From the NCBI GenBank assembly GCA_963777605.1, contig CAVZRV010000007.1, positions 576,001 to 640,000 on the forward strand: 64,000 bases of DNA, given 5' to 3'. The translations under genes and the position numbers were made by a program. Shown piece by piece: positions 6,016 to 63,548 of this stretch (positions are counted from its first letter, which is position 1; every line of letters starts with the position of its first letter). A model generated the notes under the pieces. The model did not search any database. It saw only the letters and a list, made by a program, of their open reading frames with translations, and was not told the DNA's origin. This stretch comes from an uncultured Acidobacteriota bacterium (GTDB taxonomy: Bacteria > Acidobacteriota > UBA6911 > RPQK01 > JAPXNP01).

Positions 6016-7271
6016 ACCTGTTGAGACGGATTTGGGCCCTGCTCCTGGTCGTCGGCCCGGGGATCTTCTGCATCGGCTACACCATCGGCACCGGCAGTGT
6101 CACGTCGATGGTCAAGGCGGGCTCGCTGTTCGGAATGCGCCTGCTTTGGGTCCTGCTTCTGAGTTGCCTCTTCTCCTGGGTTCTTATGGAGGCGTTTGGA
6201 CGATTTTCATTGGTCGCCAACGACACTGCAATTCACGGCTTCCGCAGGCGCCTGCCGGCCGGTCCGGCCCTGGCTGTGATCGTCACCGCCGGGATCGTTG
6301 TAGCCCAACTCAACTCCCTGACCGGGATCCTCGGGCTATCCTCGGCTGCCCTGTTCGAGGTCGTCCAGGTCGCCGCACCGACAACGTCCAGCCATCAGTA
6401 CCTGGGAACACTACTGATCGCAATTGTGGTCGTCGTTCTCATGTACGTCGTCCTGCTCAAAGGAAGCTACGCCACCTTCGAACGGGTACTCGTACTCTTC
6501 GTCACCCTGATGGGCGCCTGTTTTCTGGTCTCGATGGCGGTGGTTCCGCCCTCCTGGCAGGAAGTGCTCCGCGGACTGGTCCCCCAGGTTCCGACCAACC
6601 CGTCCGAGCGATTGATGGTGGCTGCGTTCGTCGGAACCACGATGGCGGCCCCGACCTTCGTGGTGCGCCCCTTGTTGCTTCGCGGCAAGGGTTGGACGAT
6701 GGCAGAATACCGGGCCCAGCAGCGCGACGCCCTGATCTCCGCGGTCATGATGTTCGTCATCAGCGGCTCCATCATGGCGGTTTCGACCGGGGCCCTTTTT
6801 CACCGGGGATTGACAGTCGAGAGGGTCCTCGACATGGTCAACACATTGACTCCGATGGCCGGGCCCATGGCAACCTCCCTGTTCCTGTTCGGAACACTCA
6901 GTGCCGGACTTTCCTCCGTCTTCCCGATCCTCATGGTGGCCCCTCTCCTGATCGCCGATTACCGCAAAGGCGAACTGGAAACCCGGACCCCGCTCTTTCG
7001 GGTGCTGACCGGGTTGGCATGCCTTGTCGGTCTGACTGTCCCCGTACTCGGGGCAAACCCGATCTCTGCCCAGATTCTGACGCAGGTCGCCAACGTATTC
7101 GTGCTTCCGCTAGTCACCGGAGGGATTCTGATCCTGGTCAACCGGCGGGACCTGATGGGTGAACACCGGGCGGGAATCCTTCTTAACATCGGGCTTGGCG
7201 CCGCCTTTCTCTTCTCTCTGCTGATCTCCTGGGCGGGATTTCGTGCGCTTCAAGACGCGCTCCTCGGATAA
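6012..7271 (+). CDS. NRAMP-family (MntH-like) transporter
   Basis: About 11 TM helices; GPG...IGTGSV and AFVGTT segments; overlaps the upstream stop codon. Confidence 0.75.
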   Translation: MNLLRRIWALLLVVGPGIFCIGYTIGTGSVTSMVKAGSLFGMRLLWVLLLSCLFSWVLMEAFGRFSLVANDTAIHGFRRRLPAGPALAVIVTAGIVVAQLNSLTGILGLSSAALFEVVQVAAPTTSSHQYLGTLLIAIVVVVLMYVVLLKGSYATFERVLVLFVTLMGACFLVSMAVVPPSWQEVLRGLVPQVPTNPSERLMVAAFVGTTMAAPTFVVRPLLLRGKGWTMAEYRAQQRDALISAVMMFVISGSIMAVSTGALFHRGLTVERVLDMVNTLTPMAGPMATSLFLFGTLSAGLSSVFPILMVAPLLIADYRKGELETRTPLFRVLTGLACLVGLTVPVLGANPISAQILTQVANVFVLPLVTGGILILVNRRDLMGEHRAGILLNIGLGAAFLFSLLISWAGFRALQDALLG

Positions 7272-7364
7272 CTTTGAAACGCACCTCGGCTGCAATCAGA
7301 TCCTGCTTGCACGGCCACCCACTTTTCGCTAGCCTCGACTCGGGCATCGCGAGCGGAGAAAGAA

Positions 7365-9008
7365 GTGCAGAAGCGGCTGGCAACCAGGCTCATCCTCTCA
7401 CTCACGATCATCGTCGTGATTGTCGAGGGAGTTTCCGGGCTCATCAATATCAAGACCCAGGAGCGCCAACTGCTCGACGCCATGATTCTTGGGGCTGACC
7501 AGCTTTCAAGAGGGATCACCAGCGCCACCTGGCACGCCATGCTGGCCGACCACCGTGAAACCGCCTACCAGGTGATGGAAACGATCGCTCAGAAACAGGG
7601 CATCCGGCGAATCAGGATCTTCAACAAGGAAGGGCGGATCATGTTCTCGACCGACCCTAATGATGGAGGGCAGGTCGACAAGGACGCCGAGGCTTGTGCC
7701 ATGTGCCACTCGACGCTTCGACCCCTGGTTAGAGTGGACGTCCCTTCCCGATCCCGGATCTTCAAGAGTTCCGATGGACGGCGCGAACTAGCCATGGTGA
7801 GCCCAATCTACAACGAGCCTGCCTGTAGCGATGCTGCCTGCCACGCTCATCCCGCCCAGATGAACGTCCTGGGCGTCCTCGACGTCGCCCTCAGCCTGGC
7901 TGACGTAGATTCTGAGATTCGTGCAGTTGAGTGGCGAGTTGCTTCGGCGACGGCAGTTCACATCGTTCTAATCGGAATCTTCATCGTCGTCTTCACCCGA
8001 CGCTTCGTGGATCGGCCGATCCGGAAACTGATTGACGGAACCCGGGCGGTCAGCCAGATGCAGCTCGACCGGCCGATTGAAATCGAAAGTGGAGATGAAC
8101 TCGGAGAACTCGCCCGCTCCTTCAACCTGATGCGGGACCGACTCAGCGAGGCCATCGCGGAAATTAACGAATTCACCCAGCAACTGGAAACCAAGGTAGC
8201 CGAGAGAACCCTCGAACTCGAGGTTGCCCACCAGAAGCTGGAGCAAAACGAGCGGCTGGCTTCACTTGGACGGCTTTCTGCCACTGTTGCCCACGAGATC
8301 AACAACCCACTCTCGGGTGTACTGAACCTCTCGATGCTGATGGAGCGAATTTTACGCGACGGCTCTCTTCCCGCGAGCCGGGCCCCTGAATTCCAGGGCT
8401 ACCTGGCCCAGGTCACGAGGGAAACGACCCGGATCGCCCGGATCGTTTCTGGCCTTCTGGCGTTCTCTCGCCGCGCCAAACCGCTGGCGGCACCAACCGA
8501 TCTCAACCGAGTGATTCAGAGCGCTCTCTCGGCGATCAGCCACAAGCTCCAATCGTATGGAGTGAATGTCACTCTTGAGCTCGATCCCCACGTTCCGGAA
8601 GTGCCCGGAGACGGCGGACAGTTGCAACAGGTGATGATCAACCTTCTGGTCAATGCAGCGGAGGCCACCCAAACGACCGCGCAGAAACAGGTCACAGTCT
8701 CGACCAGTTCTACCCCCGAACGCATTCTGATAAAGGTGTCAGACAACGGAGAAGGCATTCCCCAGCAACACCTGCATCGGATATTTGATCCGTTCTTTAC
8801 TACCAAGGAAGCAGGCAAGGGGGTCGGGCTCGGCCTGGCGGTCGTTTACGGCATTATCGCATCTCACGGCGGAGAAATAGACGTCGAGAGTCAGCCGCGC
8901 GAAGGAACCACCTTCACAGTGAGACTTCCCCTGACTCTGAGGGATTCGCCTCGCACGGCAGGACCGACATCGGCTTCGAAAAGAGACGGAGGCATGCGAG
9001 AAGCATGA
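7365..9008 (+). CDS. HAMP sensor histidine kinase with periplasmic haem c-type motifs
   Basis: Two TM helices flank a domain with CAMCH and CSDAACH. HAMP domain, H-box [32 protein letters not shown]. Confidence 0.92.
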
Positions 9009-10363
9009 AGAGACGCTGGAAAATCCTGGTAGTCGATGATGAAGAGGTGATGCGGGACTCCCTTGCGGCGTGGCTCCGGGAGGACGGCTACCTGGTCGAA
9101 ACAGCGGCGTCGGGCGAAGCAGCTCTCTCCCGGGCGAACAGTGCGGATTTCGCGGTCTGCTTCGTTGACTTGAAGATGCCGGGCGGGATCGATGGGATCG
9201 AAACCATGGCCGGGATAAAGAAGGTACGCCCGGATACGGCAGTCATCATCATCACTGCCTACGCGACCGTGGACACGGCAATCATGGCAATGAAGCAGGG
9301 AGCGACCGAGTACATCGTCAAGCCCTGCAACCTCGAAGAAATCTCACTCCTGGTCGACCGGATCTTCAAGATGAAGAGCCTTCAGCTCGAGAATGCCATC
9401 CTGAGACAAAAGCTCAGCCGGCGCTACCGAGTTCAGGACATCATCAGCAAAAATCCCAGGATGCACGAGATCTTCCGCCTCATCGAGCAGGTCGCCGGGA
9501 TGCGCAGCACCGTCCTGATTGAAGGTGAGAGCGGAACGGGAAAGGAACTGGTGGCCCGCGCCATCCACTACTCGAGCGATCGGGCGAATCGGGTGTTCAT
9601 CGGGGTCTCCTGTGGAGCACTGGCCGAAACCCTGCTCGAATCAGAACTCTTTGGACATGAGAAGGGAGCATTCACAGGAGCGGCAGCGCAACGGAAAGGG
9701 AAGTTCGAACTGGCCGACGGCGGAACGCTGTTTCTCGACGAAATCGGGGACATCTCTCCGAAGCTCCAAATGGATCTGCTCCGGGTTCTCCAAGAAAGGA
9801 CCTTTTATCGCCTCGGGGGGACTCGCGAGGTCCAGGTGGACGTCCGGATCATTGCGGCCACCAACCGCGACCTGAGTTCGGCTGTTCGGGAAAGTCAGTT
9901 CAGAGATGACCTGTACTATCGCCTGAACGTCATCAACATCCTGATCCCTCCTCTGCGGGAACGCAGGGAAGACATTCCACTACTCGTGCACCACTCCATC
10001 GAACGCCTTTCGCACGAACTCGGAAGAGACGTGGACACGATCAGTGACGAAGCTCTGAAGCTGCTAATCGACTACGATTGGCCGGGAAACGTCCGCGAGC
10101 TGGAGAATGCCGTGGAACGCGCGCTGATCACCTGCCAGAACTCACAGCTGTCGGCAAGGGAGTTCTCGTTCATTTCCCCCGAGGGTAGCCCTCCACGAAA
10201 CTGGGTCGTCCCCCCTGACCTCAACCTTCATGACCTGGAACGGGCAGCCATTATTGATGCATTGACGAGAAACAACGGCAACGTAAAAGAGTCCGCCAAC
10301 CAGCTGGGGATCGACCGTTCGACGCTCTACGACAAGATTAAGCGCTACGGGATCCCCCACTGA
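9005..10363 (+). CDS. Sigma54-dependent response regulator (NtrC/AtoC family)
   Basis: Receiver domain (VDD, DLKMP), [29 protein letters not shown], Fis-type HTH. Confidence 0.95.
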
Positions 10364-54278: not shown

Positions 54279-54421
54279 AGCGATTCCGTGCAAAGCCAGT
54301 GTAAGTTACGCTCATTGCCCAAGTCAACCAAGGCGGCCCAACGAGCAACTGCCGCCCCGGATTCCATCAAGTCAAATGCTATACTAACAGGAGTCGTCAG
54401 GCTTCAGAGGAATTGGTATCA

Positions 54422-56089
54422 ATGAAAATTAGACTTGGAACCGTGTTGGTGTTCACAATCGCCGCTGCCGCACTTCTCGGCGGGTTTCTGGGACAGCGCG
54501 TCAATGCTGAGCCTCCGCTCGAGGACGGCACCGAACAGATTCTCCAGAATTTCACCTCGGTGTTCGCATCTATCGAGCAGAATTACGCGGGCAATGTGAA
54601 ACCGGACGACTTGGTCCAGAACGCGGTTCAGGGCATGTTGAGGACGCTTGATCCACACAGCTCGTTCTTTTCGACCGCCGACTTCGACCGGCTCCAGGAG
54701 GAGCAGAAAGGCAAGTACTACGGTCTCGGAATCACCATCCGTCCCGAGTCTCCGGGAAGCGGCCGCGTTGTTGTGGTTGAACCACCCGCACCGGGTTCAC
54801 CTGCTTACCGGGCCGGTCTTCGGGCCGGCGACGTGATTGCAGAAATCGAAGGAAAGCCGATCGACGATTGGGATCTCAACACCGAAGTAATCCCCAACCT
54901 GAAGGGCCCCCAGGGCACCACCGTAAACATCACGGTGGAACGCCCGGGCGAGGACGAGGCGCTCCAGTTCACGGTCGAGCGGGACGAAATTCCGATGTAC
55001 ACGATCAAGTACGCGTTCCGGATTCGGCCCCAGGTTGGGTATATCCGGATTGCCCGCTTCGCGGAAACCACCGGCCGGGAGCTCGACAACGCTCTGGATG
55101 CCCTTGATGAATCGACCCTTTCGGGCCTGATCCTCGATCTGCGTGACGATCCGGGAGGGGCTCTGAGCCAGGCACTGGCAGTGTCGGATCGTTTCCTGGA
55201 CGCAGGACAACTGATCGTCTCGACCCGGTCCCGAAACGGGAAAGAAAGCCGGGATTACAAGGCCAAACGCAATCAGCGCTACCACTATCCGATGGTAGTG
55301 CTGATCAACCAGAACAGCGCCAGCGCCAGTGAAATCGTTTCCGGTGCCTTGCAGGACCACGACCGGGCCCTCATTCTCGGCGAAACGAGTTTCGGGAAAG
55401 CCCTCGTGCAGACCATTTTCCCGCTGCAGGGGAACCGGGCCCTGGCGTTGACTACCGGGCGCTACTACACGCCGAGCGACCGCTTGATCCAGCGGGACTA
55501 TTCGGTCGGATTCTGGGAGTACTACAACCATCGCCAGTCGGATCAGGACGTCAAGCACTCCTCCGACGAGAAGGCCTATTTCACGGATGGTGGTCGAATC
55601 GTCTACGGTGGTGGCGGCATCTCACCGGACGAGAAAGTTGATCTCGACCGCATTCCCCTGACAACCCGGAAGATTCAGCGCAAGAACCTGTTCCGGAAGT
55701 ACGCCTCCAAGGTCTACTCGGGTGAGATAAAGAGCGATCTCCTGGAAGGAATGCCGTCGGATATCGACAGCCAGGATGACGAAGATGTCGTCAACGCAAT
55801 CGCCGCTCTTCAGATCGGCGAAAGGGCGCTTGCAGATTTTCGAAACTACGCCAAGAAAGCGGAACTGGACTTCACCGACGACGAGTGGAGCGAGGCCCAA
55901 CGGGTTACCGCCAACTTCCTGAAACAGGAACTACTCCTCCTGGTTGTAGGGGATGAAGCCAGCTACCGGGTTGCACTCGAACTGGACAATCAGGTGCAGA
56001 CCGGAATCGAACGACTGCCGCAGGTGACGTCACTTCTTCAGAAATCGATTGCCGAAGCCCGCTCCAACAGCAGCAGTCAGAGGGATTAG
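54422..56089 (+). CDS. S41A C-terminal processing protease with PDZ domain
   Basis: LDPHS, GLGI, LDLRDDPGG, SASASEIV.GALQD, FGKALVQ and YYTPS motifs. Confidence 0.93.
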   Translation: MKIRLGTVLVFTIAAAALLGGFLGQRVNAEPPLEDGTEQILQNFTSVFASIEQNYAGNVKPDDLVQNAVQGMLRTLDPHSSFFSTADFDRLQEEQKGKYYGLGITIRPESPGSGRVVVVEPPAPGSPAYRAGLRAGDVIAEIEGKPIDDWDLNTEVIPNLKGPQGTTVNITVERPGEDEALQFTVERDEIPMYTIKYAFRIRPQVGYIRIARFAETTGRELDNALDALDESTLSGLILDLRDDPGGALSQALAVSDRFLDAGQLIVSTRSRNGKESRDYKAKRNQRYHYPMVVLINQNSASASEIVSGALQDHDRALILGETSFGKALVQTIFPLQGNRALALTTGRYYTPSDRLIQRDYSVGFWEYYNHRQSDQDVKHSSDEKAYFTDGGRIVYGGGGISPDEKVDLDRIPLTTRKIQRKNLFRKYASKVYSGEIKSDLLEGMPSDIDSQDDEDVVNAIAALQIGERALADFRNYAKKAELDFTDDEWSEAQRVTANFLKQELLLLVVGDEASYRVALELDNQVQTGIERLPQVTSLLQKSIAEARSNSSSQRD

Positions 56090-56113
56090 GGCAACTCACT
56101 CCACCGGGACACT

Positions 56114-57043
56114 ATGAAATTCTGCACGTTTATTCGGGAGGGGCAGACGTGCCCCGGCTTTGAGTTGCAGGGACGATGGATCGTCGGACTCAGGGAAGCC
56201 GGCCTGGCGTTGGTGGAGTCGGGGAGGGTCCCCAAAGATGCGCGTTCCATCATCGAATTGCCCGACCTGAAGAGCTGGCTTTCGCAGGGAACCGAAGCAT
56301 TCGAGATCGCGAGCCTGATTCACGACCTGGTCTCCGAGAAGTTTCCCGGCGTCTACCCCCGAAACCGGACTCGCCTGATCGCTCCACTTCCCGACCCGGG
56401 CAAGATCATTGCCGTCGGCCTTAACTACCGGAAGCATGCGGAAGAGCAGAATACTCCGCTCCCTACGTCACCCCTGATTTTTGCGAAGTTCCCGAGTGCC
56501 GTCATCGGACCGGACGAACCGATCAAGCTTCCGGCCATCAGCCGGCAGGTGGACGTGGAGGCCGAGTTGTGTGCAGTCGTGACCCGACGTTCCAGGAACG
56601 TCACCGCACAAACGGCCGCCTCTTCACTGGCCTATTGTGTCGGCAACGATGTCAGCGCCCGGGACCTCCAGTATTCCGACCGTCAATGGGTCCGAGGCAA
56701 ATCCTGTGACACATTCGCCCCCCTGGGTCCGTGGATCGTCACTGCGGATGAAGTCGGTGATCCCCACTCGCTCGCGATTGAGCTGAAGGTGGACGACGAA
56801 ATCCGGCAGAGCGCGAATACCTCGGACATGATTTTCACCTGTTTCGACCTGGTGGAGTATCTGTCCCGTTGCATCACGCTCGAACCTGGTGATGTGATCT
56901 TCACCGGGACACCTTCCGGGGTTGGAGTCTTCCGGGAACCGCCCCTGTTCCTGGAACCCGGGCAACTGGTTACGGTCACCATCGAAAAGCTGGGGACCCT
57001 GACCAACCCGGTCGTGACCGATACTATTTCCGTTCCCAGATGA
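56114..57043 (+). CDS. Fumarylacetoacetate hydrolase family protein
   Basis: GLNY..H, EAEL, NDVSARD, GKSCDTF.PLGP and TGTPSGVG motifs. Confidence 0.93.
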   Translation: MKFCTFIREGQTCPGFELQGRWIVGLREAGLALVESGRVPKDARSIIELPDLKSWLSQGTEAFEIASLIHDLVSEKFPGVYPRNRTRLIAPLPDPGKIIAVGLNYRKHAEEQNTPLPTSPLIFAKFPSAVIGPDEPIKLPAISRQVDVEAELCAVVTRRSRNVTAQTAASSLAYCVGNDVSARDLQYSDRQWVRGKSCDTFAPLGPWIVTADEVGDPHSLAIELKVDDEIRQSANTSDMIFTCFDLVEYLSRCITLEPGDVIFTGTPSGVGVFREPPLFLEPGQLVTVTIEKLGTLTNPVVTDTISVPR

Positions 57044-57968
57044 AGGCGTGAAAGGTCTTGAGGATCTCGAAGCCTTTTCGCAGGTAGAGGCGAAACGCCC
57101 GGTCGTTCCCTTCCGAGACAGAAAGGGTAACCCGCGCCAGCCCCTTTTCCCGGCATTGCGCCAGATAGGTGTCGATCAAGGCCGAGCCAAGGCCCCGTCC
57201 CTGACAGTCTCTCCGGATAGAAATCTGGGGGATCATCGCGGTCTCCGGTGCGATTCGGGTTCCCAGGAGAACCCCGCAAACCTTGCCCTTTGCATCAACC
57301 GCAACCAGCGTGTCCTCGCCGAAGAACCGTCCACAGGCCGGGTTTTCGATCAGGTTTCGAACGAATCTCAGGCAGCCCTGGCGGGTCTGGTAGTCCCAGC
57401 AAATCGTTGAATCGAAAGACCCCCGGTAACTGTCGTAGATCACTTCGGATGCCGGCCCGATGAACTTGTCCTGCCAGTGCGTGAGCTGCCACGCCGGCTT
57501 TCCCATCCCCAAATTCCCGACAGCGGGAACCAGGGCACTGCCCAAATCGCAAACCAGGAAGTGACGGCGAAGAGCGCCGAAACTACAGGCCGCAAACAAG
57601 GATCGAAACTGGTAGTTGAACTCGAACAACTGCGTCTCCACCCGTTCAACACCGGGAACTCCGATGATCGTCTCCGCTGCGCGCTGAAGAAGAATCCCGT
57701 ACGGGTCCGGTCCCGCTTTCCGGTCGAGAACGTACAGGCCTCCGATGAATGAGACAGGGCGGTCCACGACGTAATAGGAATACCCAATCACTTCGTCTCC
57801 CGACTGCAGGACGTATCCCGGCAACGCCTTGGCCAGGATAAAGCCCTTGATCACGTTCAGCGTGGACCGGTAGTCCCAGAAAACCGAGTCTGTCCAGTGG
57901 CGGACCTCCTCTTCGAAGAGAGGGTTGAGCTTCTCAAGTGGACAGTCACGGAGAGGGATGATCTGCAT
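57024..57968 (-). CDS. Tandem GNAT acetyltransferase
   Basis: QGRGLGSAL and N..A..LY.RKGF motifs. Confidence 0.85.
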   Translation of the reverse strand: MQIIPLRDCPLEKLNPLFEEEVRHWTDSVFWDYRSTLNVIKGFILAKALPGYVLQSGDEVIGYSYYVVDRPVSFIGGLYVLDRKAGPDPYGILLQRAAETIIGVPGVERVETQLFEFNYQFRSLFAACSFGALRRHFLVCDLGSALVPAVGNLGMGKPAWQLTHWQDKFIGPASEVIYDSYRGSFDSTICWDYQTRQGCLRFVRNLIENPACGRFFGEDTLVAVDAKGKVCGVLLGTRIAPETAMIPQISIRRDCQGRGLGSALIDTYLAQCREKGLARVTLSVSEGNDRAFRLYLRKGFEILKTFHAFIWERK

Positions 57969-58067
57969 TTCCGGCCATTATTGCACTCCGAATCAGAGCC
58001 GTCACCCGGAAGCTTATCTCCGACCGCACGGAAGCCAGAAACTCCCCAATTGCAAATGCCTGCAAGT

Positions 58068-58097
58068 TTGCCAGGTCAGAAGGCGGAGATCTATAAT
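58068..58097 (+). promoter_or_regulatory. Sigma70-type promoter, near-leaderless
   Basis: TTGCCA-N18-TATAAT, ending 9 nt before ATG 58107. Confidence 0.55.
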
Positions 58098-58106
58098 CTA
58101 AAAGTA

Positions 58107-59054
58107 ATGAACATAAGGATTCATCCCCGCAACCTGGATCTTCTCAAGACGCAAGAAAACCTGATCGATCGCCATTGCGCGAAAATACGCAAGATGCTGA
58201 CGAGCTTTTCACCCGACACCATGGATTTGGACATCAGCCTGGAGAAGCTTCCGCGTGGAAGCCAGTACCAGACTGCCCTGGTGTTGGCTCTCCCTCAACG
58301 CACGATCAAGGTCGAGGAACTCGAGCATAACCCAACAACCAGCCTGGTCCGCGCCTTTGCCGAATTGCGTCGCCGGGTCAAGAGGTTCAAGAGCCAACTG
58401 AACCGGGAACGGCTCTGGCACAAGCAACCTCCGACGACCGAATCGGTTCCGCTAACCCGATGGGAAATCGAGGCGGAGGCCAATGAACACCTGGAAAAAC
58501 TCGAGAACTACGTGCGACGCGAAATTTACTACCAGGTGATTCAGGGCCAGCTTCCTCCCGGGATGATCGAACCTCAGGCCATCGTCGATGACGTCTTCCT
58601 TTTCATCACAAGCCGGCCCGAAGCCAAGCCTACCAGCCTCACCGTCGAACAGTGGATGATTCAGACTGCTCGCGCAATCCTGGGCCAGCGGATGGAAGAG
58701 ATCGAAGACCACCGGGACGAACTCCACGTGGAGGAGAGCGCATCCGAAAAGAGCGACTGGGAAGACGAGGATCTGAATTTCTACCAGCCCGATGAATCGC
58801 TGTCGATGGGGGACCTTTTCGAAAACGACAACGTCTCCAACCCGGAAGAGATTCTCGAGCGCGAAGAGGCGGAAGAGGAACTTCACCGATCGGTCGCAGC
58901 CCTTCCCCTGAACGTTCGTGAATCGTTCATCCTTTTTGCATTGGAAGGATTCACTTCTGACGAGGTCTCCATGATGACGGGCAGGAAGGCACAGGAGATT
59001 CTCGATGAAGTCGAGCAGGCACGGGAAATCCTCAAGAAAAACTTCACTTCATGA
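58107..59054 (+). CDS. HPF/RaiA (ribosomal S30AE)-like domain fused to ECF sigma-like regions 2 and 4
   Basis: MNIRIHPRNLDL...AFAELRRRVKRFK (HPF-like); IVDDVFL...WMIQTAR (sigma2-like); LPLNVRESFILFALEGFTSDEVS (sigma4-like). Confidence 0.75.
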   Translation: MNIRIHPRNLDLLKTQENLIDRHCAKIRKMLTSFSPDTMDLDISLEKLPRGSQYQTALVLALPQRTIKVEELEHNPTTSLVRAFAELRRRVKRFKSQLNRERLWHKQPPTTESVPLTRWEIEAEANEHLEKLENYVRREIYYQVIQGQLPPGMIEPQAIVDDVFLFITSRPEAKPTSLTVEQWMIQTARAILGQRMEEIEDHRDELHVEESASEKSDWEDEDLNFYQPDESLSMGDLFENDNVSNPEEILEREEAEEELHRSVAALPLNVRESFILFALEGFTSDEVSMMTGRKAQEILDEVEQAREILKKNFTS

Positions 59055-60238
59055 GATTTGCAGACCGACTTCAGGGAATCCAGGCATCCCTCACCATGAA
59101 GGTTATGCTGGAGGCCCAGGCGCTGCGGGCACAGGGGATCGATGTCATTGACCTCGGGCCCGGACAGCCGGACTTTCCAAGCCCGGCGGCGGCGAAAGAG
59201 GCGGGCAAGGGCGCCATCGATTCCAACTTCACCCGTTACACGCCGAGCGCCGGAATTGACGAATTGAGAGAGGCGATTGCCTTGAGGTTCAACCGGCGTT
59301 GGGGGACTTCCTACTCGATCGAAAACGTGCTCGTGTCGTCGGGAGCGAAACACTCGATTTTCAACGTCTGCATGGCCATTGTCGATGCGGGTTGCGAGGT
59401 CCTGATTCCCTCACCCTATTGGGTCACCTTCCCCGAAGTCGTCCGTATCTGCGGGGGAAACCCGGTCGAGGTCAGGACGGACGAAAAGGATCATTTCGTC
59501 CTCAACCCTCGGTCTCTCGAATCCGCCACTACCAGTAAGACCAGCAGCCTGATCATCAACTCCCCCAACAACCCGACCGGCGCGGTAATTCCGGGTAACC
59601 GGCTGGGAGAAATCGCTGAGTGGGCCCGCAAAAGAAATGTCTTCGTACTCTCTGACGAGACCTACGAGCAGTTTGTCTATGACGGTGCCAACCACGTCTC
59701 CGTTGCCTCGATGTTTGGCCCGGAGGAGGACAACTACGCTGTCGTCGGGTCGTTTTCCAAGTCCTACTCCATGACCGGCTGGCGCATCGGGTACTGCGTG
59801 GGGCCCTCGAACCTCATCGAAAAGATGAATGAACTGCAAAGCCATCAGACTGGCAACCCGGTCTCCATCTCGCAAAAAGCCGCTCTTGCCGCACTGAATG
59901 ACGACCCTTCAGGCCTTGACGCGGTGCGCCGCGAATATGGCTGGAGGCGAAAGTACGTACTCGATCGGTTGGCCGGAATCCCGGGTCTGGAATGTGCGCC
60001 ACCTGGAGGCGCATTCTATGTCTTCCCCCGGGTGAGGGATGCATTGGAGGCAGCCGGGTGTTCGAACTCGATCGAGTTTTCGCAATTCTTGCTTCGGGAT
60101 GCGCGGGTTGCTACGGTTCCCGGGTCGGCCTTCGGTTACGAGGGCCACGTTCGCATCTCCTATGCCGCTTCCCGTGCCCAACTCGCGGAGGGATTCGATC
60201 GGGTCGAGCGGTCGATTCGAAAGGCGTCCAGTCGTTAG
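59051..60238 (+). CDS. Class I PLP aminotransferase (aspartate aminotransferase-like)
   Basis: GQPDF, NSPNNPTG, DETY, SFSKSYSMTGWRIG and PGSAFG motifs. Confidence 0.94.
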   Translation: MRFADRLQGIQASLTMKVMLEAQALRAQGIDVIDLGPGQPDFPSPAAAKEAGKGAIDSNFTRYTPSAGIDELREAIALRFNRRWGTSYSIENVLVSSGAKHSIFNVCMAIVDAGCEVLIPSPYWVTFPEVVRICGGNPVEVRTDEKDHFVLNPRSLESATTSKTSSLIINSPNNPTGAVIPGNRLGEIAEWARKRNVFVLSDETYEQFVYDGANHVSVASMFGPEEDNYAVVGSFSKSYSMTGWRIGYCVGPSNLIEKMNELQSHQTGNPVSISQKAALAALNDDPSGLDAVRREYGWRRKYVLDRLAGIPGLECAPPGGAFYVFPRVRDALEAAGCSNSIEFSQFLLRDARVATVPGSAFGYEGHVRISYAASRAQLAEGFDRVERSIRKASSR

Positions 60239-60245
60239 GTCGGCG

Positions 60246-61004
60246 ATGGGTTCTCTCTCCAACATCTCGATCGTGCTGGTTCGACCCTCCGTGCCCGGGA
60301 ATATCGGCTCGGTAGCGCGGGCGATGAAGAACATGGGCCTGTCCCGCCTGAAGCTGGTGTCACCCGCCGATCCTCTGGGTCCGGAATCCCGCATGATGGC
60401 CGTCAGCGCATTCGACGTCGTCGAGCGGTCAACGATCTACGATTCGGTTGAAGATGCGCTGGCCGAAGAGCAGGTTGTGGCGGGCACAACCTCGTTCCGC
60501 GGACGAAAGGAGCGCACGCGGATCGAGGCTCCGCGCGGTATCGCCGGCAGGCTCCTGGAAGCCGCCAAATCCCAACGGGTGGCGGTTCTGTTCGGCCCGG
60601 AACGGTCGGGTCTGAACGAGGCCGAACTGGCCCTCTGCCAGCATCTCCTGTCCATTCCCGCGGCTCCCGAGTTTCCTACCCTCAACCTCGCCCAGGCCGT
60701 TCTTATTGTTTGCTACGAGTTCTACACACGCGCGCAGGACGCCGCGTCCGAGGCCGGTATCCCCTCGCTGGCCGCCCAGGAAGAGTTGTCCGGCATGTAC
60801 GACCACCTGGAACGCACCCTGGTCAACATCGGGTTCCTGAGCACGAGCAACCCCGGCCACATTATGCGGTCGATCCGGCGAATTCTCTCCAAGTCCGAGA
60901 TGACCTCACGTGATGTGAGGATCCTCAGGGGCATCGCCAGGCAGATGGACTGGTATATCGAACAGGGCCGAAAGCTTGCCCCGGAACGAGTGCGCAAGCC
61001 TTGA
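60246..61004 (+). CDS. trmJ: SPOUT RNA methyltransferase, TrmJ/LasT-type
   Basis: GNIGSVARAMKNMG, FGPERSGL and LNLAQAV...YE motifs. Confidence 0.88.
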   Translation: MGSLSNISIVLVRPSVPGNIGSVARAMKNMGLSRLKLVSPADPLGPESRMMAVSAFDVVERSTIYDSVEDALAEEQVVAGTTSFRGRKERTRIEAPRGIAGRLLEAAKSQRVAVLFGPERSGLNEAELALCQHLLSIPAAPEFPTLNLAQAVLIVCYEFYTRAQDAASEAGIPSLAAQEELSGMYDHLERTLVNIGFLSTSNPGHIMRSIRRILSKSEMTSRDVRILRGIARQMDWYIEQGRKLAPERVRKP

Positions 61005-61061: not shown

Positions 61062-62270
61062 CTATTGCCTGAGAATGAGCGCTGCGTTGTTTCCATCGCA
61101 ACTGAAGCCGGTTACCAGAACGTAGTCACCTGCGAGCCGTTGTGACTCCGCCGACAACTTGAGGTCCTCCGGCACTTCTTCGACCCCGGCTGTCGGGGGA
61201 AGTTCTCCACTCTCCAGCGCGCAGACTGCAACCGTGGCTGCGATCGCCGAGGATACTCCCAGCGCTTCGCCGCCGACCGCCTTGGGACAGGCAACGGGGA
61301 TTCCGGCAAGTCCGGACCCAAAGACCGCACGCAGCGCTTTCAGCTCCATTTCGTCCCCGGCCCTGCTGCCGCTGGCCCCGGAGACAATACCACCGATCTC
61401 CTCAGGTCCAATCCCGGCATCAACCAGTGCGCCTTGCATTGCTCTTACTGCCCCATCGGGCCGGGACGAGAACCGGGAGACAGAATGAGCGTCCTGGGCA
61501 TTGCCAAATCCGACCAGTCTGGCCAGCACGGGGGCGCTGCGCTCGGCCGCGTCCTCGGCTCGCTCGAGAACCAGCAATGCCGAACCTTCGCCCAGCACAA
61601 CGCCATCCCGAGTTGCCGAGAATGGCTTCACCCGACCGGTCTCGCTGAGCCACCCGTTCTTCCGAAAGCCGAGATAGGACTCCTCGGCAATCTCCTCTAC
61701 TCCGCCGGCGAGAAGCATCGATGCCCGTCCGAATCGCAGAGCATCGGAAGCATACTGGAGGGCAAGCAGGCCCGAGGCCAGTCCCGCCGAAATGGTCGAG
61801 TTGATGCCTCGAAGCTTGTGCCGGATAGCCGCCTGACCGGCGGGGGAGTTGATTACAGTGTTGGTAAACGCCATCGGGTTGACATACTTGACGCCATCCT
61901 CGAGGCCGCTCCAGTCGAAGGAAGCGATGCTGTGGACGCTTCCAAAGATGGTCCCACAGACGAGCCCTTCCTCCGGCTTTCCTTCACCGTCGTCGCTCAC
62001 CTCGCGGCCTACCGAAGAAAGCGCCAGCTGGGCAGCCACCGCCAGGAGGCGGGCGCTGCGGTCCAGTACCCTGATCCCCTTGGGGCCAAGCCAGGTCTGA
62101 GGTTTGAAATCCTGCACCTCGAAAACGGCGGGGCCGGTTTCCCCAATTTCGATTACGGAACTCGGCTTCACCTCGGGAACGGCTCTAAAAAGGGTCTTCC
62201 TGAATTCCTCCAGACCGGCCCCAAGTGGAGTAATCAAACCTGCTCCGGTAACAACAATCTCACTCGTCAT
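61062..62270 (-). CDS. Ketosynthase-like protein lacking the catalytic triad (chain-length-factor-like)
   Basis: KS fold (VTGAG, GEGSA, GNNAAL). C-H-H is replaced: AGLASG for TACAAG, SGASGS for AHGTGT, GEALG for GHTMG. Confidence 0.85.
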   Translation of the reverse strand: MTSEIVVTGAGLITPLGAGLEEFRKTLFRAVPEVKPSSVIEIGETGPAVFEVQDFKPQTWLGPKGIRVLDRSARLLAVAAQLALSSVGREVSDDGEGKPEEGLVCGTIFGSVHSIASFDWSGLEDGVKYVNPMAFTNTVINSPAGQAAIRHKLRGINSTISAGLASGLLALQYASDALRFGRASMLLAGGVEEIAEESYLGFRKNGWLSETGRVKPFSATRDGVVLGEGSALLVLERAEDAAERSAPVLARLVGFGNAQDAHSVSRFSSRPDGAVRAMQGALVDAGIGPEEIGGIVSGASGSRAGDEMELKALRAVFGSGLAGIPVACPKAVGGEALGVSSAIAATVAVCALESGELPPTAGVEEVPEDLKLSAESQRLAGDYVLVTGFSCDGNNAALILRQ

Positions 62271-62272
62271 CG

Positions 62273-63490
62273 TCAACGATCCCATCTCGCCAGGCAAAGG
62301 CTCGCGTTGTTCCCACCAAAGGCGTAAGCGTTGTTCAACACGATTTGAGGGTTGGTCTCCCGAGCCGTGTTGGGGACACAGTCGAGGTCGCACTCCGGGT
62401 CGGGCTCTTCGAAATTGATGGTGGGTGGAATTACCCCGGCTTGGAGAGCCAGCGCGCAGCCTGCCGCCTCGATTGCGCTGGCGGCCCCCATCGTGTGGCC
62501 CGTCATCGACTTGATCGAGCTCATGGGAAGCCGATCAGCCAGCGATTCAAACAGTCGGCGAGCCGCAATTGATTCTATCCGGTCGTTCGTCGGAGTCCCG
62601 GTGCCGTGCGCGCAAATATAGTCCACCTGGTCAAGGTTGACCCCGCTTTCCCGGAGGGCTCCCGACATCGCCCGCATCGCCCCATCCCCTTCCGGATGGG
62701 CGGCAGTCATGTGGTGGGCATCGCAACTGAGTCCGTATCCGAGAATTTCAGCATAGACGGTTGCTCCCCGCTTCAGGGCAGCGTCAAGCGGTTCCAGGAC
62801 AAGGATTGCAGCACCTTCCCCGGGAACCATCCCCTTACGATTCCGATCGAAGGGCTGGCACCGCTCGGGAGCAATGGCACCAAGGCGGGAGAAGCCCATG
62901 TAGGTAATCCGCGAGAACGCGTCCGCTCCACCCGCCAGCATGAGGTCGGCTCGTCCCAGCCTGAGCAGGTCGGTGGCGTTGCCGATTGCATAGTTTCCGG
63001 CCGCACAGGCAGTTGGAATCATTACACAGGGCCCGCGGACGCCAAATTCAATGGCCAGGTTGTCCGGGATCACGTGACAAGGGTACTTGGGGAAGATGTC
63101 GGCCGGAATCGCGTCGAACCCACCCGCGTTCCGGGCATCGTTGTACTGCTCCACGAACAACGGTTCTCCGGAAGTGGTGCCCATCGAGACGCCCACCCGG
63201 TAAGGATCGAAGCGTTCCAGTTCGATGCCGGCATCGGCGACAGCCATGTAAGCAGCCGCTACGGCCATCTGGGATGCCCTCCCGAGTTTGGCCGGATCCT
63301 GCCTTCGGACGTGCGCTGCCGGATCGAAATCCTTCACCTCCGCTCCCAGGTTTCCCGGAAAATCGGACGTGTCAAAGGACTGTACCGGCGCGATTCCACT
63401 CTTTCCGGAAGTGACAGCCTCCCAGAATACCTTCCTGCCGGAACCAACCGGAGTCACCAGTCCGATCCCGGTAATCGCGATTCTCTTCAT
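62273..63490 (-). CDS. Beta-ketoacyl-ACP synthase (FabF/KS-alpha type)
   Basis: TACAAG, AHGTGT, KSMTGH and AFGGNN motifs. Confidence 0.95.
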   Translation of the reverse strand: MKRIAITGIGLVTPVGSGRKVFWEAVTSGKSGIAPVQSFDTSDFPGNLGAEVKDFDPAAHVRRQDPAKLGRASQMAVAAAYMAVADAGIELERFDPYRVGVSMGTTSGEPLFVEQYNDARNAGGFDAIPADIFPKYPCHVIPDNLAIEFGVRGPCVMIPTACAAGNYAIGNATDLLRLGRADLMLAGGADAFSRITYMGFSRLGAIAPERCQPFDRNRKGMVPGEGAAILVLEPLDAALKRGATVYAEILGYGLSCDAHHMTAAHPEGDGAMRAMSGALRESGVNLDQVDYICAHGTGTPTNDRIESIAARRLFESLADRLPMSSIKSMTGHTMGAASAIEAAGCALALQAGVIPPTINFEEPDPECDLDCVPNTARETNPQIVLNNAYAFGGNNASLCLARWDR

Positions 63491-63548
63491 ATTGCTCCCG
63501 CCTTTCGTCGCGACACTGGAACTCTTGGCCAACCACTCTCCGTCGGCC

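Follow-up and report, generated by a model that had tools for sequence, protein, structure and literature searches.

A candidate hibernation factor of Acidobacteriota that joins an HPF/RaiA domain to a degenerate sigma-like module

Within a 64,000-nucleotide (nt) stretch from an uncultured Acidobacteriota bacterium (assembly GCA_963777605.1, contig CAVZRV010000007.1, positions 576,001 to 640,000 of the forward strand; hereafter the window, numbered from its first letter), one gene (58107-59054 on the + strand, stop codon included) encodes a chimera of 315 amino acids (aa), free of internal stops, in which a ribosome-hibernation domain of the HPF/RaiA type is joined to a two-domain module resembling an extracytoplasmic function (ECF) sigma factor. 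On balance, the chimera is probably a non-canonical hibernation factor that carries a DNA-blind pseudo-sigma appendage. An earlier reading made from the letters alone (the sequence-only reading) had proposed this order of parts, namely an HPF N-terminus, a sigma2-like segment, a very acidic linker and a sigma4-like segment, and Pfam matches, predicted fold and charge bore it out at every point.

The N-terminal HPF/RaiA domain

Judged by sequence and predicted structure, the N-terminal 105 residues are a true HPF/RaiA domain. Residues 3-98 match the Pfam family Ribosomal_S30AE (PF02482) at 26.6 bits (gathering score 23.7), so that the profile check proposed earlier for this segment was passed, and the HPF domains of six distant family members, at 25-45 bits, all exceeded the PF02482 cut-off (6/6). 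An AlphaFold2 model built from 137 family sequences (predicted local distance difference test score (pLDDT) 90.5; predicted template-modelling score (pTM) 0.63) replaced an earlier one from 35 sequences (pTM 0.35; linker pLDDT <50). It consists of a beta-alpha-beta-beta-beta-alpha unit (residues 2-105), four helices (118-203), a less confident stretch (204-245) and four further helices (246-314), with the HPF domain at pLDDT 89-98. Residues 1-103 of the model superpose on ribosome-bound RaiA (8rd8_D) with Z 15.4 and a root mean square deviation (rmsd) of 1.4 Å over 99 residues; V. cholerae HPF (4hei) is matched at Z 15.1, and many HPF, pY and YfiA chains at Z 13-15.

Moreover, the charge of the domain is conserved. 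Among 35 relatives its mean net charge is +8.9, and R22, K26, K29, R89, R90, K92, R93 and K95 are each Lys or Arg in at least 89%, forming a conserved basic face on helices alpha1 and alpha2. We take these conserved basic positions to be rRNA contacts. The HPF-like N-terminus of the sequence-only reading is thus upheld by the Pfam score, the fold match to RaiA and the basic face. No match to PF16321 (Ribosom_S30AE_C, the dimerisation domain of long HPFs) was found in the chimera protein.

The sigma-like module

The C-terminal half is, by alignment and model, a degenerate sigma: it retains the fold but not the residues that read promoters. Its residues 115-315 align with EcfG, an ECF sigma (5uxx_C; Z 16.2, rmsd 3.6 Å, 153 residues), and the two-domain sigma2 plus sigma4 fold also matches SigW, CnrH and SigG1 (Z 13.1-13.6). 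The sigma4-like domain alone fits region 4 of sigmaE (2h27; Z 11.2, rmsd 1.5 Å), and an hmmsearch against the PDB matched it to sigma4 of AlgU (E 6.5e-8) and to sigmaE (E 1e-7). The sequence models for sigma factors remained below their cut-offs in the chimera (TIGR02937, 26.8 versus 42.9 bits over residues 156-312; Sigma70_r4_2, 19.5 versus 25.7 bits; PhyR_sigma-like (PF22233), 18.7 versus 27 bits), with no match at all for Sigma70_r2. Of the Sigma70_r2/r4 identity put forward by the sequence-only reading, the profile part failed while the predicted fold is clearly sigma-like. Among six distant members tested, two pass the Sigma70_r4_2 cut-off.

The sigma-like parts of 16 family members (10 of subfamily 1, to which the window's gene belongs, and 6 distant) were aligned with 21 ECF sigmas of the window's own genome, drawn from its 26 Sigma70_r2 matches, among which the chimera does not figure. 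The region-2.2 residue is Gln in 21/21 of the ECF sigmas and Asp in 16/16 of the family members, and the Asn of the 'ARN' motif (region 2.3/2.4) is present in 20/21 and 0/16, respectively. The net charge of sigma2 is +5.0 in the genome's own ECF sigmas versus −1.9 in subfamily 1 (n=10) and −1.7 in the distant members (n=6); that of the recognition helix is +3.0 versus −0.9 and −0.5, and that of sigma4 +2.3 versus −2.9 and +1.7. In the recognition helix, GTVRSRIFRAR of AlgU/sigmaE is aligned with eeVLkeVeeAR of the family. The region-2.2 Gln, universally conserved in sigma factors of this kind, is presumably a residue that binds core RNA polymerase; with Asp there in all 16 members aligned, ordinary core binding is not to be assumed.

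The arrangement of the modelled module is closed, as in ECF sigmas and PhyR bound to their antagonists (EcfG-NepR, Z 16.2; SigW-RsiW, Z 13.3; CnrH-CnrY, Z 13.1; PhyR-NepR, Z 12.9 and 12.6), and ECF sigmas bound to RNA polymerase superpose only at an rmsd of about 27 Å. Because the Gln, the ARN Asn and the basic charge are lost and the fit is to closed sigmas only, promoter reading appears very unlikely in the window's subfamily, on alignment and model together; some distant members may retain it. The idea of a DNA-blind sigma-like part is thus supported by the lost residues and by two acidic sigma-like domains, and the recognition helix is as unusual in charge as had been noted. The companion idea, in which ribosomes would store a real sigma, is unlikely in view of the residue losses, a promoter of sigma70 type and not of ECF type, and the lack of an adjacent anti-sigma gene among the genes annotated.

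The acidic linker

The linker between the two sigma-like domains carries the family's best-conserved element, better conserved than either folded domain, which indicates a conserved binding partner. The family consensus of this motif is [DE]x[LFY]x[FY][YWH]QP[DE]ExLxxED, and D220, E221, F225, Q227, P228, D229, E230, D236 and P246 are invariant in both family alignments. The scan for loci used the motif among its probes, so that its invariance there is partly built in; a library search run without the motif probe gave a looser yet still dominant motif, most of 148 representatives keeping [DE]x[LFY]x[FY][YWH][QE]P[DE]ExhxhEDhh. From this conservation, the motif is likely a contact site for a partner.

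A family spread over Acidobacteriota and plasmids

A word-indexed search listed 120 homologues, of which 99 have at least 98% query coverage (309-371 aa) while the smallest of the others has 173 aa at 54% coverage. Homologues with a taxon name come from Acidobacteriota/Acidobacteria or just from a 'bacterium', and are annotated as 'sigma-70 family RNA polymerase sigma factor' or 'HPF/RaiA family ribosome-associated protein'. When 1.84 billion representatives were searched with a profile, 373 clusters scored E ≤ 1e-30, and most of the top 150 representatives are full length (310-390 aa). In species genomes, 49 loci were found, mostly in metagenome-assembled genomes (MAGs) of Acidobacteriota; the distant members (21-34% identity) belong to Blastocatellia, Terriglobia, Bryobacterales, a Myxococcales MAG and a Sumerlaeota MAG. 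Furthermore, in 24 plasmid records tblastn covered at least 80% of the query, with about 23-29% identity; their hosts include Methylorubrum extorquens AM1, Brucella anthropi, Paracoccus yeei and Sphingomonas. The fusion is therefore a family and not a product of chance.

Each half can also exist alone, since sigma-only and HPF-only proteins both occur. One genome (G057) encodes a motif-bearing sigma-like protein of 222 aa without an HPF domain upstream, and 16 proteins among the top 150 representatives appear to be built likewise, most of them beginning with Met. In one genus only a stand-alone HPF-domain copy of 100-113 aa was found (five genomes of the phylum sample described below, four of the order sample), which in the locus examined adjoins a trmJ homologue. 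Two chimera genes are frameshifted, one between the HPF and sigma-like parts (G335, locus L055) and one inside the acidic motif (G250, locus L058, on a contig shared with L042); these may be assembly errors or real pseudogenes.

The distribution was counted in 401 Acidobacteriota genomes (phylum sample) and in 41 genomes of the window's order (order sample); as the genomes are incomplete, a zero in these counts means 'not found' and not 'absent'. Only whole-profile matches were counted as fusions (28 uninterrupted and 2 frameshifted, beside 1 sigma-only and 5 HPF-only); a tally of 188/401 fusion genomes was discarded as inflated by generic ECF sigma4 matches (E about 1e-11 to 1e-14). The uninterrupted full-length fusion is thus found in 28/401 genomes and PF16321, the C-domain of long HPF, in 255/401. 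PF16321 was found in 0/28 genomes of the window's order in the phylum sample and in 10/10 genomes from other orders of its class; among fusion genomes outside the order, 9/13 have it. In the order sample, 25 of the 41 genomes (a count that includes the unpublished genome G049) carry the full-length fusion and 4 the HPF-only form. In 21 of these 25 carriers no other PF02482-type protein was found at E ≤ 1e-3; the single PF02482 match is the fusion itself in 20 of the 21, and in the remaining one (G407) Pfam finds none. The window's own genome (completeness 96.7%) has no PF16321 match at E ≤ 1. This pattern of sequence matches suggests that long HPF gave way to the chimera in the window's order, where the latter seems to be the chief hibernation factor of these soil bacteria.

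Elsewhere in the window's genome lie two short HPF-like open reading frames (ORFs), both below the cut-off of the HPF/YfiA equivalog TIGR00741: one of 106 aa (L001, 1498-1818, −; Pfam 44 bits) and one of 122 aa (L002, 1426-1794, −; Pfam 35 bits) that adjoins an ATP-synthase alpha-like gene.

Relation to known systems

The architecture is known in outline, and by homology the chimera belongs to the family of Orf11 of the transmissible stress-tolerance locus/locus of heat resistance (tLST/LHR) and of the SigE-HPF proteins. New here are the sigma degeneracy, the conservation of the linker motif, the failure to find long HPF in the order and a promoter that implies a leaderless mRNA.

A preprint (bioRxiv 10.1101/2025.11.04.686544) describes, in its accessible part, chimeric HPF isoforms in which a Csp, SigE or CBS domain is attached and no dimerisation domain is present; it cites plasmid pEc78 as carrying a SigE-HPF fusion and states that such chimeras always coexist with canonical HPF, often beside Balon. 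SigE-HPF, a computational description only, resembles the window's protein in its HPF N-domain without a long-HPF dimerisation domain, in its SigE-like part and in having Balon-associated and plasmid relatives. It differs in the stated coexistence with canonical HPF, which is at odds with the order-wide counts given above for PF16321 and for other PF02482 proteins, and the accessible portion of the preprint gives no account of degenerate sigma residues, an acidic motif or a leaderless promoter. The sequence-only reading had put the gene forward as an undescribed system; with SigE-HPF chimeras in this preprint and homology to Orf11, that claim does not hold, and its own caution that the architecture may already be in databases proved sound, the family being large and listed there. 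Our literature searches found no experimental study of an HPF-sigma fusion.

The link to Orf11 extends over the full length. An hhalign comparison of the family alignment with E. coli tLST Orf11 spanned 309 columns (probability 99.6, E 6e-25), among them the FYQPD[DE]xLxxxD motif, which is thus common to Orf11 and the window's protein. The latter is also 27% identical over its whole length to a Brucella anthropi plasmid protein of 390 aa (BLASTP E 9e-27), which is encoded in the order Hsp20 (three genes), MarR, FtsH, ClpK-like AAA ATPase, the homologue, HdeD, further genes, YfdX1, YfdX2 and TrxC, with a PsiE gene at the other end just past the Hsp20 genes. With the B. anthropi homologue as query, 288 plasmid records were matched, chiefly from Klebsiella, Enterobacter, Acinetobacter and Escherichia; the match on an E. 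coli IncHI1A plasmid is a 'hypothetical protein' between hdeD-GI and trx-GI. Both of these plasmid homologues are situated within islands of tLST/LHR type. In contrast to Orf11, which has 381-390 aa and sits on a mobile stress island, the window's gene is chromosomal, stands among housekeeping genes and has another promoter arrangement; the HPF part of E. coli Orf11 is too diverged for Pfam, whereas that of the window's protein exceeds the gathering score. According to the accessible text of PMC8290217, the orf11 product is <30% identical to any protein of known function, and a sigma-24-like factor is a hallmark of the archetypal tLST island.

Three further comparisons delimit the chimera. Long HPF and short HPF/RaiA (YfiA) have in common with it the N-domain fold, the basic helices and the Pfam family, but long HPF carries PF16321 where the chimera, which falls below the TIGR00741 cut-off, has the sigma-like module. 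The sigma-like domain of PhyR is likewise a closed, protein-binding ECF-sigma fold without DNA-reading residues (Z 12.6-12.9); PhyR, however, has a receiver domain, a NepR partner and the opposite domain order, whereas in the chimera Pfam and NCBIfam detect no receiver domain and the acidic linker motif is added, and the PhyR model NF006623 matches the chimera at profile positions 63-136 only (26 versus 240 bits). Archaeal HibA/AHA, as far as its accessible description goes, combines an HPF/RaiA domain with a non-dimerising CBS nucleotide-sensor module, whereas the chimera has a sigma-like fold; HibA/AHA is reported to have been seen on ribosomes by cryo-EM, and the chimera is known here from sequence and model.

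Promoter, start codon and expression signals

The gene is preceded by a conserved promoter of sigma70 type. TATAAT is invariant in 10/10 aligned orthologous upstream regions, together with a GTTTGCC −35-like box, and TTGCC-N17/18-TATAAT, with TATAAT 6-13 nt before the ATG, recurs in 37/39 loci of subfamily 1 and in 0/7 distant loci, some of which (for example, L047, L049, L052 and L054) have a Shine-Dalgarno-like GGAGG instead. Such a TATAAT box precedes 1 of the 41 long ORFs of the window, that of the chimera, and the hexamer occurs three times in the 64 kb. As the −10 box ends 9 nt before the ATG, we infer that the mRNA is leaderless or nearly so and arises from a housekeeping-sigma promoter. 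Leaderless mRNAs are favoured when 70S ribosomes accumulate, and leaderless expression would suit a hibernation factor. An ECF-type autoregulated promoter was not found upstream, the conserved TTGCC-N17/18-TATAAT standing there instead.

The position of TATAAT in the window and in the 37 orthologous loci also identifies ATG 58107 as the start codon. A start at GTG 57897 (a frame of 385 aa) was dropped because the promoter evidence favours the ATG; this extension would overlap the divergent GNAT gene by about 70 nt, and the stretch 57897-58106 is most likely not translated. Rfam gave no family at gathering score anywhere in the window, and neither a raiA-type RNA nor a riboswitch. The search for expression gave small-share runs only. 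In one RNA library, a contig of 189 nt matches 58448-58633 with 95-99% likeness; as DNA was possibly present in the library, it shows neither transcription nor habitat.

Genomic context

The neighbours named in the sequence-only reading, an overlapping aminotransferase gene followed by trmJ and a divergent GNAT gene, were all confirmed (Table 1), and the phyletic and synteny survey it had suggested revealed, beside the large family, that these neighbours are kept in subfamily 1. This subfamily comprises 39 loci, and three of its nine aminotransferase misses have almost no downstream DNA. The aminotransferase gene is probably co-transcribed with the chimera, given the ATGA stop/start overlap. 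None of the three neighbours was found in the seven distant loci.

Table 1. Features of the chimera gene and its surroundings in the window.
Feature	Position	Strand	Basis and remarks
Coding sequence of the HPF/pseudo-sigma chimera	58107..59054	+	ORF translation; homologue search and alignment
HPF/RaiA domain, residues 1-105 (beta-alpha-beta-beta-beta-alpha, long basic helix alpha2)	58107..58421	+	Pfam PF02482, predicted fold, charge
Interdomain connector, residues 106-117	58422..58457	+	pLDDT about 58 (deeper model); variable in alignments
Sigma2-like domain, residues 118-203; ~10-residue insertion (GxLPPGxLxP) before region 2.2; Asp161 for the region-2.2 Gln	58458..58715	+	Alignment with own-genome ECF sigmas; fold match
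Acidic linker, residues 204-247 (44 residues)	58716..58847	+	Mean net charge −12.2; pLDDT 56-84 (deeper model)
Signature motif, residues 218-238 (WEDEDLNFYQPDESLSMGDLF)	58758..58820	+	Invariant positions in two family alignments
Sigma4-like helix-turn-helix domain, residues 248-315, non-basic recognition helix	58848..59051	+	hmmsearch against PDB, fold match, charge
Sigma70-type promoter (TTGCCA, 18-nt spacer, TATAAT)	58068..58097	+	11/12 consensus matches; −10 box ends 9 nt before ATG
GNAT acetyltransferase, 314 aa, divergent	57024..57968	−	Pfam Acetyltransf_1, E 4e-16; upstream in 29/39 subfamily-1 loci
Class I/II aminotransferase, aspartate-aminotransferase-like	59051..60238	+	Start overlaps chimera stop (ATGA 59051-59054); directly downstream in 30/39 subfamily-1 loci
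TrmJ/YjtD-family RNA 2'-O-methyltransferase	60246..61004	+	TIGR00050, 177.5 versus 167.15 bits (scanned from 60306); ATG 60246; downstream in 22/39 subfamily-1 loci

The GNAT domain is C-terminal in its protein. An assignment of the latter to RimI (the ribosomal-protein S18 acetyltransferase, its best NCBIfam match) was rejected at 51.9 bits against a cut-off of 86.4, and a functional link of the GNAT to the ribosome is only a thought. Upstream of the GNAT gene, an S41 (CtpB-like) PDZ peptidase and a fumarylacetoacetate-hydrolase-family enzyme (54413-57043, +) are kept in 18/39 and 14/39 of the related loci, respectively. Downstream of trmJ, on the opposite strand (61062-63532, −), two ORFs of 443 and 419 aa that overlap as called by ~120 nt look like beta-ketoacyl synthases from their sequences.

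NepR-like proteins are small. Among ORFs of at least 110-120 aa, a bound that smaller NepR-like genes would escape, no anti-sigma gene was seen beside the chimera in the window or in the annotated loci, nor was any RNA polymerase subunit gene found near it in these regions. The distant members adjoin genes for baeRF_family10 (Balon-like), FtsH, thioredoxin, PsiE, Usp and HdeD-like proteins. For example, L047 has the order FtsH, fusion, baeRF_family10 and a PGK-Usp fusion, and L051 the order fusion, TrxC, PsiE and baeRF_family10; BON, Trx and DUF308 (HdeD-like) genes lie upstream of the fusion in L053, and a ClpX-like gene lies near it in L054. The PGK-Usp gene of L047, a Blastocatellia MAG, is an ORF of 739 aa (7723-9939, +) with a phosphoglycerate kinase and a universal-stress-protein domain, just downstream of the chimera and baeRF_family10 genes. 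A link of baeRF-1 with HPF genes was reported by Burroughs and Aravind in 2019 (PMC6514570, accessible part).

The window's gene, among housekeeping genes, has neither a stress island nor a Balon-type neighbour, and the baeRF_family10 and Usp genes of its genome lie on another contig (G000:C30, locus L063). There, a Usp gene (7872-8345, +) stands directly behind a baeRF_family10 gene (6690-7823, +; 378 aa, 121 bits), and the two form a second, separate hibernation-type locus; an ECF sigma gene with a zf-HC2 anti-sigma gene lies ~3 kb upstream.

Discussion

The evidence is best accommodated by a hibernation factor in which ribosome binding would come from one half and a regulatory contact from the other. 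By homology, the HPF domain would occupy the 30S decoding centre and keep idle ribosomes silent, and the ECF-sigma-like module would stand where long HPF has its dimerising C-domain. The pseudo-sigma would serve as a protein-binding or regulatory appendage and not as a promoter-specific initiation factor, because its sigma fold is kept, the promoter-reading residues are lost, it is net acidic, and it is predicted closed as in anti-sigma-bound ECF sigmas; the invariant acidic linker motif would contact its partner. Expression would proceed from the conserved sigma70-type promoter, as a leaderless mRNA and together with the aminotransferase. Within a wide family to which tLST/LHR Orf11 also belongs, the chimera represents the chromosomal branch in Acidobacteriota.

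Several points weigh against this explanation. The TIGR00741 cut-off of 40.9 bits is missed by a wide span (14.0 bits in the protein scan and 15.9 in the genome search). Only ~12 connector residues separate the HPF helix from a module of ~200 residues, whereas the linker after the N-domain is longer in long HPFs, so that the chimera may not fit on the 70S ribosome. Little weight attaches to the closed model, because AlphaFold often renders free ECF sigmas closed. With the two short HPF-like ORFs of its genome, the fusion is not the sole hibernation-factor candidate there. None of its subfamily-1 neighbours (GNAT, aminotransferase and TrmJ) is a stress gene, and common descent may suffice to explain why they stay together. 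Finally, in E. coli with tLST, deletion of orf11, a distant homologue, did not lower heat or chlorine resistance and left lipid oxidation unchanged, as given in the accessible part of PMC8407380, so that this member of the family is without a known phenotype.

A second reading, which refines this explanation and does not oppose it, is unlikely in our estimate. It holds that the pseudo-sigma binds the core of RNA polymerase without seeing DNA and so blocks or stores the polymerase, with sigma2 placed at the clamp helices of beta', the acidic linker running through the cleft and the RNA-exit channel and sigma4 on the beta flap, and that, being joined to HPF, it shuts down transcription and translation together or tethers them; the sequence-only reading had raised this as its second idea. 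The complete two-domain ECF fold with conserved region-2.1/2.2-like and 4.1-like helices is consistent with it. ECF linkers thread the RNA-exit channel in published holoenzyme structures, and a long, invariant acidic linker would be expected in such a basic nucleic-acid channel, the whole module being acidic like a nucleic-acid mimic. Moreover, the stand-alone sigma-like proteins with the motif (G057 and the 16 of the top 150) indicate that the module has a function of its own. Against this stand the Asp found in 16/16 members in place of the region-2.2 Gln that we take to bind the core, a model that is closed and not in the open holoenzyme form, and the lack of a nearby RNA polymerase subunit gene in the regions annotated.

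It is improbable that the module acts as a decoy in the manner of PhyR, capturing an anti-sigma-type protein, with HPF in place of the receiver so that the state of the ribosome would free a stress sigma. Such a role would fit the weak PhyR_sigma-like matches (18.7 bits here and up to 21.6 in relatives, with precomputed PF22233 tags on many homologues), the PhyR chains among the matches (9by5, E 2.8e-6; PhyR-NepR 4qic, Z 12.9, and 2lfw, Z 12.6), NepR-bound EcfG as the top fold match, and sigma determinants that are degenerate, as described for PhyR. However, there is no receiver domain and the domain order is the reverse of that in PhyR, every PhyR model scored below its cut-off, no anti-sigma or NepR-like gene was seen beside the chimera or in the annotated loci (a very small gene could escape), and the conserved acidic linker has no known counterpart in PhyR.

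Least probable is a true ECF sigma that the HPF-like domain regulates in cis to switch on the neighbouring genes: although the name 'sigma-70 family RNA polymerase sigma factor' is given to many members by NCBI and JGI, the 'sigma 24-like transcription factor' of some tLST-type islands would fit, and DNA binding may survive in the distant subfamily, whose sigma4 is net positive (mean +1.7, up to +4) and passes Sigma70_r4_2 in some members, the window's subfamily shows the change from Gln to Asp, the loss of the ARN Asn and an acidic sigma2, sigma4 and recognition helix, with all sigma sequence models below cut-off, TTGCC-N17/18-TATAAT in place of an ECF-type autoregulatory promoter, no anti-sigma neighbour found and, in the accessible text of the ECF classification paper (PMC7826278; term search), no mention of ribosome or S30 domains.

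Carried further, the explanation as a hibernation factor leads to a bolder and rather unlikely proposal, in which the ancestral long HPF of this order was replaced by an HPF-pseudo-sigma that docks on the RNA polymerase core through its sigma2/sigma4 surfaces and the invariant FYQPDE linker, silencing ribosome and polymerase together or tethering one to the other, and that is made from a leaderless mRNA as 70S ribosomes pile up. If true, this polymerase-docking mechanism would also explain Orf11 of the tLST/LHR stress islands. If, on the other hand, the appendage is a passive substitute for the dimerisation domain, the chimera would be a modest addition to the HPF variants.

Hibernation factors decide how bacteria survive starvation, and new types are still emerging. 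The present family is found both in soil Acidobacteriota and on mobile islands for heat and chlorine tolerance in Enterobacteriaceae; Orf11, its member there, has gone a decade without an assigned function. With an apparent stand-in for long HPF in one order, a pseudo-sigma half and a short acidic motif, it offers a tractable test case, and it raises the question of the role of a sigma fold in a ribosome factor, and of a physical link between the shutdown of transcription and that of translation.

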